A stretch of 64,000 nucleotides of DNA from Eledone cirrhosa (lineage: Eukaryota). The stretch lies in contig OZ024740.1 of NCBI GenBank assembly GCA_964016885.1, positions 203,980,001 to 204,044,000 on the forward strand. The letters are read 5' to 3'. Position numbers and translations under genes: made by a program. Positions 39,785 to 59,901 of this stretch are shown in pieces. Below the pieces are notes generated by a model. That model ran no database searches, was not told where the DNA came from, and saw nothing but the letters and a program-made list of their open reading frames with translations. Position 1 is the first letter of the stretch. Every line of letters begins with the position of its first letter.

Positions 39785-40302
39785 AAATGTTCGGTAAACC
39801 CATACGTACATATATATGTGTGCATGTATGTATATATATACATACTACTGTACGTCTGTACAATTATATGTATGTACGTATACATACTTATATTTAAGTA
39901 TCAGCCGTACTAAGAGTGAGAAATGAAATTTCATTTTTTCCATTTATCGTTTTCGGTACGCCCGGCCGACTAACTCACTCGATATGCAAATTAGGCTGCT
40001 CAGCCGTTAATATGCATAAGGAAAGTATATACTTTCAGACGTTAAATCGACTGACAGGAAGGTATTCGGCGCTGATGACAGCTAATAAGCTAAAAACTAG
40101 TTCATCGTTCCTTTGTCAGTGTTGAACAAAAGGGCAACGATGGTTGCCGAACACTGTACGGCTAATAATTCGGGCTGTTTGTTTACAAACAAATGTTCAG
40201 TAAACCCATACGTACATATATATATGTGTGCATGTAGGTATATATATACATACTATTGTACGTCTGTATACATATATGTATGTACGTATACATACTTATA
40301 TA
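39785..40302 (+). mobile_element. Retrozyme-like unit: approximately 108-bp direct repeats, period about 406 bp, octamer plus decayed HHR
   Basis: Repeats start at 39785 and 40191; ATGCAAAT at 39984-39991; cggcg CTGATGA cagct-aata-agct aAAA actagt t catcg at 40067-40107. Confidence 0.55.
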
Positions 40303-40400
40303 TATATATATATATAAATGAAGAGAGAAAGAGGGAGGGACAGAGAGTGTAAGAAATGTGTGTGTGTTTGGTACACGTCTATCTATCTATCTATCTATCT

Positions 40401-43400
40401 AACTGAAGGGCCAAACTTTATAACTGCTGTGGGACTACCTCATTCGAAAATGATAAAAGTCCCAATGCACTTGTACAAAACACTGAAAATAAATTTCACG
40501 GAGGACGTGGGCCCCCCCTGCGCCAAACCAATCAACCGCGTCCTCCTAAAAAATTTCACCCCCCGTTCTGCTGCAAAAACATATGGGCCTTGCAACACAG
40601 ATAGTTCACTTGGACCCAGGGGGTCGACTGGTGGTGCTGGACCTTGGCAGTGGTGAAGGTAGAGCCCTTAGGCTGATAGCCGCATATGCCCCTTTTGGGA
40701 CAGAGCGGCCCGACTTTTTCCAGCGTCTGGAGTCTTTTCTAGGGACGTCCCGTTCCCTGCTTTTAGTGGGGGATTGGAATGGTATCCTGGATGCACGTTG
40801 GGACTATGCAGGGGCATGTCCCGATAGAGAGGGGTGCAACAGCCTCAAGGGGTTACTCGGCCGATTTGACCTGGCCGATAGATTTCGACTAGATTTTCCG
40901 ACGGTGCCAACCTGGTCTTGGTCAAATCGCAGCGGATCATCTAGATCGTACCTAGATAGATTTTTAGTTAGAAATAAGGACAGGGACTTTTTAAGTTGTC
41001 CAGAAATGCTCATGGTTGGCTATTCAGACCACAAGTTGGTGACCTGCATGGTCAACCTTGATAGAACGCATAGACAGGGCCCCGGTTACTGGAAGCTCAA
41101 CTTGTCCTTGCCGGCAAGTAGAGCCTACAGGAATCGGATTAGTACGTTAGTTAAGGAACGATTGACTGGAGCGATCGTCAACAGCAGGTGGTGGGTATCT
41201 CTAAAGAGAGAGATTAGAGTAGTCTCGATTGAATTTAGTAAGGTTCTAGCTGCGGATAGGAATAGGAAGGAAAGGGAGCTAATAGATAGAGTAGAAGAGG
41301 CAATTAGAAGCGGCGACGTGGCCAGAGTGCTAGCGTCGAGAACGGCTTTGAGCCAGTTTTTCGACGCGAAGCACGAAGGCTGCGTTGTCCGAAGTAAAAT
41401 ACGTGCTCTAGGGAACGAGGGGGCCAAAGCTGTTAGCTGGGCCCGCGTGACAGAGGCCAACAGTGGAACTAAATCCACCATCCGGTCTTTGCGAGACCTG
41501 GATGGACGGGCGATTCTTGAGCCTAAGCAGATGTGTGAGGCCTTTCAAAGGCACTTTGCCCGACTGTTCGGGAGGGGCGGGGAGCCGGTTGGAAACGTGG
41601 ACTTCGGTCCATACCTCGACGGCCTGCCGCGCCTCTCGGACAGGGAGGCGAAGTCTTGCGAGGAGCCGATTTCGGCCGCTGAGATAGAGGACGTGCTGGG
41701 CCAATGCGGCAAACGCAAATCCCCGGGTCTCGATGGTCTTCCTTACGAATTATATCTAGCTATGCCGGACTTGTTCCCCGATCTCCTCGAGGCGGTCTAC
41801 TGCAACTGGCAACAGAACGGGAGAATTCCCTGTACTGTGACCAAGGGCGTAGTCACGCTAGTGAGGAAGGACGAGAACAAGGGGGACGAAATAAGTAACT
41901 TCAGGCCCATAACTCTGCTAAATACAGAGTTACAGATTTTGGCCAAGGTGCTAGCAAAGAGGTTGGCGCTTGTCGTGGGCAACCTGGTGGGAGATGCGCA
42001 GACATGCGCTATCCCGTCCAGGTCCATCCATGACAACCTCCACCTCATGCGATACATCATAGAGAGGGTTGGGAACGAACCCGGCTTTGGTGGGGCTCTG
42101 ATCAACTTGGATCAATCTAAGGCGTTCGATAGGGTCGACCATGGTTACCTGGATGCGGTGCTAGCGGCGGCAGGCTTCGGACCCGTTTTCAAGGGCTGGA
42201 TCACTGCTATGCACAGCAGCCGCATCTGCTCTAGGGTCAAGGTGAACGGCTACCTCTCGGAGCCGTTCAAAATCGCGCGGTCCATCCGACAAGGGTGCCC
42301 TCTCTCCTCCCTTCTGTATGTGTTGACTCTCGAGCCACTACTGCGGAAGTTGGAGTTGTTGCAGGGCATCCCTTTGGAACCGGGATTGCGGAAAGCGGTG
42401 TCAGCCTACGCCGATGATGTGACAGTAATGGTGTCGACGGCCTCCGAAATCGAGGCGGTCGGCACCTTACTGGAGGAGTACGAAAAGTTCACAGGGGCTA
42501 AGCTGAACCGGGACAAGTCGATCGGTTTGCAACTCGGCACGTGGAGGGGCAGACCGATGCCCTCCGATGGCGTCGTCGGACGCTGGACGGAGGGCCCGGT
42601 GAAGTTGCTCGGGGTCTGGTTCGGACCGGACCTCCAGGTGGAGAAAAACTGGGCGGAGGTTACGAACAGGGTGTTTGCACTGACCCAGAAGTGGGCCAGT
42701 TGCAAACTATCCCTGAAAGGTCGGGCGGAGGTGGCGAACACTTATATAGCGTCCGTCATCTACTACCGCCTGACCGTAGTGCCCTGGCGCTCACCGCCCT
42801 CTGGCAGGCGCTCACCGCCCTCTGGCAGGCAGATCCGGCTATCAGTGGAGACTCCACCGCAACATTCTATAGAGGGCTGGTACGCAGCAGGTGCGACGAC
42901 GCCCTCGGAGAAGCCCTAGACATGGAGGAGGACGAACTGGCCAGCCTGTTCGGTAGGACATTCAGCCCGGGACCTATGGACAACTTCCAGAAGTCCCTGG
43001 CCTGGCAGTGCTACCGAGGGGCTTTACCCGTTCGAGAAAGGCTCTACAGACACGGGCGCCCGGGTAGGGACCCCGCCAAAAAGATCTGTCCCAGATGCGT
43101 GTGCGACGAGGAAACCGTTGCACACGCATTGGTACACTGCTCGGGCGTAGCCGATCTGTGGGGCTATGTCGAACAACTGCTGTCAAGGGTGGGACCGATC
43201 CGGTTGACCACCGAGTCTATTGTAATGATCAAGCCGCCTCCCCCCTTCAAAGATGAAGCAGAGGCGGTGTTTCTGTGCGTCATAGCCATGGCGAAAGAGG
43301 TTGTATGGTGGACGCGTCTGAAAGGACTGAGGTCAGGCACCTTTTTCTCTGGCCAACAACTGGTCCGTTTCTTCCGATATCATTTCGGAAGAAGGATCAG

Positions 43401-43780
43401 GATGGAGAGAGAGGTGCTGCACCCCAGTCGTTTTTATGAAAGGTGGGTGAAAGTGGCGAGAATGGCCCGTGTGAATGGGCCTTCTCTTTACATAAGCCTG
43501 TAGGTGGAAAAGAGGAAGGAACGAGGGAGCACCCCCTCTCTGTGCTCCTGAGGAAAAGGGTTGCACACTTTTTTCGGGGGTGTGTGCGACCCCCCAAGGC
43601 GCCTCCTCTCTATTGAGGATTTTGTTAAAAATTTTATTTTTTGTTATATCTTATTTTATTTTTATATTTTGTTATTGCCTCCTCCTTATTGAGGACGCCT
43701 TTTTGTGTAAACTCCCCCCTTTGTACTTGTCCCACTTTTGATGCCCTAGTGGCAAATAAAAGAAACTTATCTATCTATCT
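40401..43780 (+). mobile_element. L1/Tx1 LINE copy A, 5'-truncated with two internal deletions
   Basis: ORF 40583-42919 (EN plus RT, YADD) and C-terminus to 43503; ORF1 tail joined to EN at about 40562; deletion with a 21-bp duplication at about 42786-42827; (TCTA)n before and (TATC)n after. Confidence 0.93.
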
Positions 43781-59261: not shown

Positions 59262-59440
59262 GTTTCTATTTTAGGCACAATTATCCCAGTGTATTACTGG
59301 TACTTTATTTTATCAACCCCGTAAGGATGAAAAGCAAAGTTAACCTCGGCGGGATTTGAACTCAGACCATAAAGGGCCGTAACTCTTTGCTGCAAAGCAT
59401 AGCGTCCGACCCTCTACCGATACTGCCAATCCATCGCCCT
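59262..59440 (-). mobile_element. SINE (family A) with TSD
   Basis: Family core on the minus strand; ttttcgaatatta duplicated on both sides. Confidence 0.8.
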
Positions 59441-59557
59441 TTTTCGAATATTATTAATAATATTCGATTCGTTTGCAATTATGCAAACAGCCTCTTTTTT
59501 AAAGCCATGTCAGTAGAATGAGCCCCTCATTCTTGCTCTTGTGTTGGGATATAAACA

Positions 59558-59607
59558 GAACTACAGACACTAATGTTTCTGGATATCACCCTTCATCAGT
59601 GCAGTTC
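59558..59607 (-). ncRNA. Type I hammerhead ribozyme in an approximately 374-bp-period direct-repeat unit (59444-59867)
   Basis: Minus strand: gaactgca CTGATGA a gggt-gat-atcc a GAAAC attagt GTC tgtagttc; 8-bp stem I and a GUC site. Confidence 0.82.
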
Positions 59608-59901
59608 ACTGTTCACCTGCCAACTGTCAGAGTTAATGAAAATATATTATATTTTCTAAAATATACAGTGACTGATCAGTCATATCTGCATATTAGCAGA
59701 CTGGACAGTCATTTCCTGTATACGAGCGATTAATGGCCGGCTTTGCCATATTGAAATAATGTTTTTTAAATTATCCCTCTACATGGCTGAATACAATAAA
59801 TGTAATCTGAGTTTTATCGAATATTAATAATAATATCCGATTTGTTTGCAATTATGCAAGCAGCCTCATTATATATATATATATATATATATATATATAT
59901 A

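Follow-up and report, generated by a model that had tools for sequence, protein, structure and literature searches.

A window of 64,000 nt from the 3.0-Gb genome of Eledone cirrhosa (contig OZ024740.1; the window is the whole stretch of DNA that was analysed) contains four short units that each combine an octamer-led, promoter-like block with a type I hammerhead ribozyme (Table 1). An earlier note on this DNA had proposed that the four share one layout. It called them cephalopod retrozymes; by the resemblance of a short interspersed element in the window, the host would indeed look octopod-like. All four octamers were located, and the distances from the end of the octamer to the start of the catalytic core were re-measured as claimed, at 80, 88, 91 and 84 nt in units 1 to 4. 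No open reading frame (ORF) of at least 150 amino acids was found over the four units. The CUGANGA core ascribed to all four is present in units 1, 3 and 4, and the core of unit 2 is TTGACAA. Units 1, 3 and 4 have TATA-like words that start 46, 56 and 49 nt, respectively, ahead of the core, which agrees with the three tracts claimed; the family of unit 2 has one too, which is mutated in the window copy. The tandem periods of 406 and 323 bp were recovered, and the third is 373 bp instead of about 374 bp. That the units have little sequence similarity is correct outside the module only: among the four families, identity amounts to 66-76% in the octamer-to-TATA block, 47-58% upstream of it and 40-48% downstream. 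Because this block is more alike than its flanks, the four families look like one old superfamily.

Units 1, 3 and 4 are 1.16-1.44 units long and unit 2 about one, with a single promoter-ribozyme module in each. Mutations in the core or the cleavage triplet are present in three of the four window copies. In the hammerhead of unit 1, G12 is replaced by A; the complete ribozyme of unit 3 has the triplet AGA, with ATA in its 5' partial copy (51087-51089) and in 17 of the 26 scored family copies. Unit 4 is the sole window hammerhead of the four in which core, GAAA and triplet all match the family. As each has one module and three are mutated in this way, the four window copies are probably dead ends. 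At 51065/51066, unit 2 (older, 89% identical to its family majority) meets unit 3 (96%) head-to-head with no (TA)n between them; co-integration would predict equal ages.

Table 1. Positions of the units, their promoter-like blocks and hammerheads, and of the Penelope-like elements in the window
Feature	Position	Strand	Details
Unit 1	39785..40302	+	about 1.3 copies of 406-bp monomer (family majority 425 bp); 3' terminus (TA)n
Unit 1, promoter-like block	39984..40032	+	octamer and NAG 39984-39994; TCAG 40000-40003; TATA 40026-40032; predicted start 40056
Unit 1, type I hammerhead	40066..40108	+	core 40072-40078; stem III palindromic; predicted cleavage after 40102 (GTT)
Unit 2	50777..51065	-	older family, 75-84% identity; abuts unit 3 head-to-head; extends at least to 50777
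Unit 2, promoter-like block	50978..51027	-	octamer 51027-51020; TCAG 51011-51008; TATA place 50984-50978 (window copy mutated); predicted start 50954
Unit 2, type I hammerhead	50889..50937	-	U3-A8 core TTGACAA 50931-50925; predicted cleavage after 50895, GTT in window copy
Unit 3	51066..51529	+	1.44 copies of 323-bp monomer; 5' truncation within stem II; 3' terminus (TA)n
Unit 3, promoter-like block	51282..51331	+	octamer 51282-51289; TCA box 51298 (window copy mutated); TATA 51325-51331; predicted start 51355
Unit 3, type I hammerhead	51374..51419	+	core 51381-51387; stem III palindromic; triplet AGA 51410-51412
Unit 4	59440..59870	-	1.16 copies of 373-bp monomer
Unit 4, promoter-like block	59642..59691	-	ATGCAGAT 59691-59684 (family majority ATGCAAAT); TCAG 59675-59672; TATA-like 59648-59642; predicted start 59618
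Unit 4, type I hammerhead	59558..59607	-	core 59599-59593; stem I 8 bp; triplet GTC; predicted cleavage after 59566
Penelope-like element	27202-29736	+	ORF of 844 amino acids, C-terminal GIY-YIG-like motif; hammerhead repeats near 26996 and 31949
Second Penelope-like family	5429-8813		broken, inverted; hammerheads 9181 and 17040

The block was compared with the promoters of the host's own small nuclear RNA (snRNA) genes, whose assignment to RNA polymerase II (Pol II) or III (Pol III) is textbook knowledge. In the Pol III type (two single U6 genes, a U6 cluster, MRP and U6atac; loci L151, L152, L153, L351 and L352) the octamer, exact or with one mismatch, is followed by NAG, lies at -76 to -78 and adjoins the proximal element. 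U6, U6atac and MRP have a TATA at -30, with 46-48 nt from octamer to TATA. Two of the 20 U6 loci (one with a short interspersed element inserted) and seven of the eight U6atac loci were left out as probable pseudogenes. The Pol II set comprised 22 promoters, namely five variants of U1 (30 loci), four of U2 (30 loci), five from 43 U5 matches, three from 42 U4 matches, one from one U12 match and four from 15 U3 matches. The U1, U2, U4, U5 and U12 promoters have no octamer, mostly TCAG or CCAG near -55 to -58 and a TATA-like word near -30; those of U3 have an octamer-like word at -71 to -74 and TATA at -32 to -27. A word like TTAYYTCCCTT was seen about 255-270 nt upstream of U1, U2 and U6 genes. 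A distal enhancer-like word that U1, U2 and U6 have in common has look-alikes in stem I of three unit families and not of three others.

Nineteen representatives stood for the units: the majority sequences of five families, a single copy from the sample, and 13 loci that were picked by eye to cover the diversity among matches to a query with a fixed octamer and three fixed letters behind it. Seven further loci (L360-L366) were kept separate. In all 19 main-group units the distance from the start of the octamer to the start of TATA is 40-44 nt, outside the 46-48 nt of the Pol III genes. All 19 share T at +13 and C at +17, and 17 have A at +18. A profile of unit positions +11 to +30, from which octamer and TATA are excluded, was slid over 21 offsets. 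It registered at -71 to -75 on 21 of the 22 host Pol II promoters, on one of the five Pol III promoters and on 24% of 3,000 TATA-containing random windows; with the five family majorities alone, the figures were 19/22 for Pol II and 0/5 for Pol III. The units carry a word resembling the proximal sequence element (PSE) where the host has it relative to the start, and the snRNA-type comparison suggested in the earlier note is borne out against the host's own genes as a match of register to Pol II promoters. The predicted start therefore falls at octamer +71 to +74. Independently of the profile, a pyrimidine-purine step is present at TATA +30 or +31 in all 19 units (C|A at +30 in ten), which agrees with a predicted start about 30 nt past TATA. 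Predicted starts lie 16-29 nt ahead of the core, just inside the 5' arm of stem I; the note had them just 5' of it. The promoter had also been said to be carried within the unit and restored by terminal redundancy. The former is the case, and the latter is unneeded because the predicted promoter lies whole within the cleavage-to-cleavage monomer.

As in the host U3 promoters, an octamer-like word at -71 to -74 is combined with a TCA word near -56 and TATA near -30, and as in host U1, U2 and U5, TCAG lies at -55 to -58. Unlike the host Pol II promoters, the units place an octamer as perfect as that of the Pol III genes in the U3 register, and the AATTAA word that the Pol II genes have near -90 to -100 is, as judged by eye, missing from them. 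When the units were compared with the U3 promoters letter by letter, the match proved to be weak, being one of register more than of letters. No strong 3' box was found: the best unit scores of 1.4-9.4 are within or near background, as compared to 14.7-19.7 in nine of ten host genes, which is expected if read-through is needed. Sense-strand runs of five to six T are present in four of the five family majorities, whereas a unit transcribed by Pol III should contain no run of at least five T. Judged from these comparisons, the block is likely a promoter, and probably a Pol II promoter of the snRNA type with a layout closest to that of the host U3 small nucleolar RNA promoter. It is likely that this block, which would lie inside the predicted circular monomer, lets tandem copies be transcribed by Pol II.

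The family majorities fold as type I hammerheads, with a stem I whose sequence differs by family and whose pairing is kept. Stem III is palindromic in units 1 and 3, in a fifth family (F466) and in an array of 310-bp repeats, a form reported to cleave as a dimer (PMC7229834). A long stem III in unit 1 was also considered and rejected, since its family copies show the short palindromic form. By script, the full anatomy was recovered in 11 sequences from a set made up of 26 representatives and the 310-bp array; most single old copies failed. The ribozyme of unit 2 was scored apart from the other representatives. Of 30 copies in its family, 27 combine T at position 3 with A at position 8, a covariation from C3-G8 to U3-A8, and 21 have C17; the U3-A8 variant is described as natural and active (Perreault et al. 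2011, PMC3088659). Core and GAAA are intact in 23/26, 21/28 and 21/26 scored copies of three sets, that is, one type I hammerhead with an intact core per unit, as in retrozymes. Circular folds of four majorities gave z = -5.7 to -10.7 against 30 shuffles each, a figure inflated by TA-rich palindromes. Four sequencing runs of unrecorded kind (all contigs) that span the 466-bp monomer and its end-to-start joint were discarded as evidence of circles, as tandem DNA gives the same picture. The loci L190, L221 and L233 belong to a different hammerhead family with a CCAAT word and TATAAATA just before the core, like an mRNA-type promoter. L360-L364 form an older hammerhead-like group with the Pol III octamer-to-TATA spacing (47 nt in all five loci) and mostly decayed ribozymes.

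Genome-wide, the pattern of octamer, N76-96 and CTGANGA has 33,798 matches, compared with 392 for the pattern read backwards, 905 for the reversed octamer and 1,109 at a displaced gap of 110-130 nt, many of which are tandem duplications of the octamer block in the family of unit 4. The positional enrichment on which the earlier note had staked its proposal is present. Since most of the matches behind these counts come from a few large families and arrays, a sample was drawn that consists of 120 stretches of 10 kb at even spacing (1.2 Mb; 116 from the four largest contigs). By script, 57 hammerhead-like motifs were found there, nine of them with the exact octamer 72-91 nt upstream. A profile hidden Markov model, built from the region behind the octamer and excluding it, gave 41 matches in the same sample, 37 of them 5'-complete (26 dispersed and 11 in the single 310-bp array). 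The octamer is exact in 22 of the dispersed matches and present with one mismatch at the expected place in the other four; at control places, an octamer with one mismatch or fewer occurred in 0/37. The dispersed copies, about 25 per Mb, would fit tens of thousands in total.

In the family searches, 40 candidates were scored per unit; the DNA search gave 2072, 560, 2678 and 2986 first-look candidates for units 1 to 4, which are not copy numbers. Scored relatives of unit 1 are 95-98% identical. As the earlier note required, each of the four units belongs to a dispersed high-copy family, and long arrays of F466, arrays with periods of 466 and 469 bp and many more subfamilies are found among the genome-wide matches. 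The units are short, free of ORFs, and both tandem and dispersed at high copy, as retrozymes are. The 310-bp array (L220:541-9719, minus strand) consists of 11 near-identical copies, kin of the family of unit 2, with a degenerate octamer and a shortened spacer. In the family of unit 4, the 33-34 bp octamer block is often present in two or three tandem copies (also upstream in L356), like the multiplication of enhancers in long terminal repeats. One F466 unit lies within the spacer of a U1 snRNA tandem array (L331:1-613), and in another repeat (e.g. G000:C1:26707556 and C1:61257805) octamer and TATAAATA are 46 nt apart.

The 3' ends of the copies cluster 115-300 nt beyond the cleavage site, and the 5' ends are scattered. 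Clusters lie at core +146 to +156 and +189 to +197 in unit 3, at +249 and +300 in unit 1 and at +325 to +333 in F466. Copies that continue unbroken past the cleavage site and are longer than one unit make up 30/30 unit-3, 45/48 unit-1-type and 13/30 unit-4 loci, shares that are inflated since the loci were chosen for full-length matches. Such copies would require a circular or uncleaved multimeric template. Two tandem promoter-ribozyme modules were found in only 2 of 120 family loci (L032 and L080); arrays hold many. In 16 of 28 other distinct unit-3 insertions there is a head-to-head pair with one arm about 45 nt longer; in Penelope-like elements (PLEs), the 'tail' has been drawn as the longer arm of an inverted pair (PMC8557442). 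The 3' end is followed by (TA)n at 19/30 loci of unit 3, 23/30 of unit 1 and 17/30 of unit 4, and at 0/30 of unit 2, where the query stopped short of the end of the unit. The insertions show 5' truncation, partial tandems, inversion, a tail and a microsatellite target, the marks of the Penelope type. The hammerhead fold, the high copy number and this insertion anatomy uphold the retrozyme identity, and the units are very likely retrozymes mobilised by a Penelope-type element. The label 'candidate new family' must be given up as far as the kind of element is concerned, since non-LTR retrozymes are known (Cervera and de la Pena 2020).

Both Penelope-like elements in the window have hammerheads of their own, and no octamer was found within 130 nt upstream of these motifs (9181, 17040, 26996 and 31949). 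A Pfam search of the three PLE-like ORFs of the window gave a weak reverse transcriptase (RT) match alone. At L211:4345-4380 and L020:1810-1814, a 5'-truncated unit is fused head-to-head to a 5'-truncated PLE ORF, in two PLE families and with no (TA)n between. Both joints, which are single cases, have the shape expected if both RNAs had been copied in one event. Three other unit-PLE junctions (L138, L139 and L008) were rejected as co-insertions, as the (TA)n between the partners shows a shared target only. The ORF fragments with LINE-like (long interspersed nuclear element) endonuclease/RT similarity at 40550-42919, 12414-14569 and 46336-48387 have no relation to the units.

A number of observations weigh against reading the units as retrozymes with a Pol II snRNA-type promoter. 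Rfam scans, made with the window as a whole and with units 3 and 4 alone, returned no hammerhead family, and the extended stem I starts at least 6 nt upstream of the predicted transcription start. The octamer is missing from 48 of the 57 sampled hammerhead-like motifs, mostly of other families, and from the 11 copies of the 310-bp array, whose ribozyme is intact. The unit families probably share one ancestor, and the paralogues of the host likewise do not count as independent. With the post-octamer profile, each of the four U3 promoters by itself reaches a score of -0.6 to -7.4, near background, and once the octamer is added to the profile, a U6 promoter scores highest among those of the host. 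Among 271 genome stretches, no autonomous partner was identified, and a search for sequencing runs containing the units listed no RNA run. The exact octamer with NAG is a mark of host Pol III promoters, T-runs coincide with one 3'-end cluster in the families of units 1, 3 and F466, where a Pol III terminator would give the same result, and predicted hairpins often involve the octamer, with 5.3 of its 8 nt paired on average, as compared to 4.2 with shuffled flanks.

Part of this would follow if the block were a U6-like type 3 Pol III promoter, with a transcript ending at the T-run before the next promoter and with promoter-containing templates arising from read-through only. Octamer with NAG and TATA is the signature of host U6, U6atac and MRP, which U1, U2, U4, U5 and U12 lack, octamer and TATA of L360-L364, the older group, are spaced exactly as in Pol III genes, T-runs mark one cluster of 3' ends, and schistosome hammerhead repeats are reported as Pol III transcribed (PMC6765202). 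However, the spacing of the main group is 40-44 nt, the middle part of the block falls into register with Pol II promoters and scores Pol III promoters at background, and copies of more than one unit that run through the T-run are common. We consider this explanation unlikely. Quite improbable in our view is that the words are kept for a reason at the RNA level, as hairpin arms or as a protein site on the circle, in units transcribed by host read-through. Octamer and TATA do lie within predicted hairpins in several families, an imperfect inverted copy of the octamer occurs 23-26 nt downstream in 11 of 19 units, the predicted circles are strongly folded, and hairpins in the RNA are themselves plausible. 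Yet the octamer is unpaired in the family of unit 4, where its block is tandemly multiplied, and it stays fixed while its pairing partner varies. This partner lies upstream of the octamer in one part of the units and downstream in another, with 0-8 nt of the octamer paired. The same inverted pair is present in a host U3 promoter, which is not transcribed, and neither the register with host promoters nor the start-site step would be explained.

The units might also be solo or truncated terminal repeats (pLTRs) of an autonomous PLE, and the block its promoter. For 24 of 57 retrozyme families of Xenopus, homology to known transposable elements, nearly all of them PLE termini, has been reported (Li et al. 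2026, 10.64898/2026.07.22.740005), and the insertion anatomy is PLE-like here as well. However, closed monomers are repeated head-to-tail in long arrays with no ORF, in the 271 stretches examined, similarity of the units to the 3' ends of three PLE families does not go beyond AT-rich words, and the PLE hammerheads of the window are without the octamer; we give this possibility little credence.

With a Pol II snRNA-type promoter in a retrozyme, the following cycle can be proposed. The source locus would need a promoter followed by two ribozymes, an arrangement that none of the four window copies has. From such a tandem locus, transcription would begin at the promoter of the first copy, 16-29 nt ahead of the core. 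Pol II, which would not be stopped by T-runs, would transcribe the unit to its end and continue into the second copy as far as its ribozyme. Cleavage by both ribozymes, which would act as a dimer where stem III is palindromic, would release a monomer of 290-470 nt that carries the next promoter, and a host ligase would close it. Using nicked (TA)n as a primer, a Penelope-type RT/endonuclease might then start at either of two AT-rich sites in the circle and, rolling round it, leave 5'-truncated partial tandems and head-to-head pairs. In this cycle we infer transcription, polymerase, cleavage, circle and partner from the DNA sequence.

The promoter of newt satellite 2 is said to contain an octamer. 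This hammerhead repeat has an internal snRNA-type promoter that was reported as Pol II (Coats, Zhang and Epstein 1994, cited in PMC2220036), and newt satellite transcripts are also treated in PMC6765202. The units resemble it in combining a hammerhead repeat with an internal, here predicted, snRNA-type promoter, and differ in being from another phylum, in having the octamer joined to a PSE-like word and TATA within 75 bp, and in forming many diverged families. Metazoan non-LTR retrozymes are tandem units of 170-400 nt (350-390 bp in mussel examples) for which circles have been shown (Cervera and de la Pena 2020, PMC7229834). Common to these and the present units (290-470 bp) are a short ORF-free tandem unit with one type I hammerhead, the coexistence with PLEs and predicted circles that are strongly self-paired. 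The main text of that paper names no internal promoter ('promoter' occurs twice, both times for T7), whereas the block is here mapped to host promoters; the circles are here predicted only. Probable PLE dependence and the occurrence as dispersed monomers and arrays are shared with the retrozymes of Li, Clavereau and Pollet 2026 (10.64898/2026.07.22.740005), which are mostly from vertebrates; the homology to PLE termini described there was not found for our units in a comparison with three PLE families. In its main text 'promoter', 'octamer', 'snRNA' and 'octopus' occur 0 times. The schistosome Sm-alpha repeats are likewise said to have an internal promoter and to need at least two tandem copies to propagate, with transcription by Pol III (Ferbeyre et al. 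1998, as summarised in PMC6765202); unlike theirs, the block of our units, which also lies inside the unit and would need tandem copies, registers with Pol II snRNA promoters. A literature search, with subscription papers, Repbase and Dfam outside its scope, gave no description of this block in molluscs.

Overall, what is new here is a promoter-like cassette of a retrozyme that is tied quantitatively to host Pol II snRNA promoters, with exact predicted starts. The newt is the only other snRNA-type case that we found cited, and the units described here give a second phylum. What causes the strong transcription of protein-free animal retrozymes is left open in the main texts of PMC7229834 and 10.64898/2026.07.22.740005, and the predicted starts together with the three motifs make this question directly testable. 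As a by-product, a compact layout of host Pol II and Pol III small-RNA promoters was obtained that may be useful for the expression of guide RNAs or circular RNAs. Should the polymerase reading be wrong, the element would still be an ordinary retrozyme with a conserved promoter-like block.

A wider reading, which we put forward tentatively and regard as doubtful at present, is that animal retrozymes capture whole host small-RNA promoters as swappable cassettes directly before stem I, and that newts did so independently. The cassettes might in that case, with the same reserve, comprise a U3-like Pol II form in the main superfamily, a U6-spaced Pol III form in L360-L364 and a CCAAT/TATA form in another hammerhead family. 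If true, such capture would account for the high, tissue-wide expression of retrozymes, and from their thousands of natural variants it would be possible to learn how the polymerase is switched in a mollusc-like animal when an octamer-led PSE is shifted by 4-5 nt.

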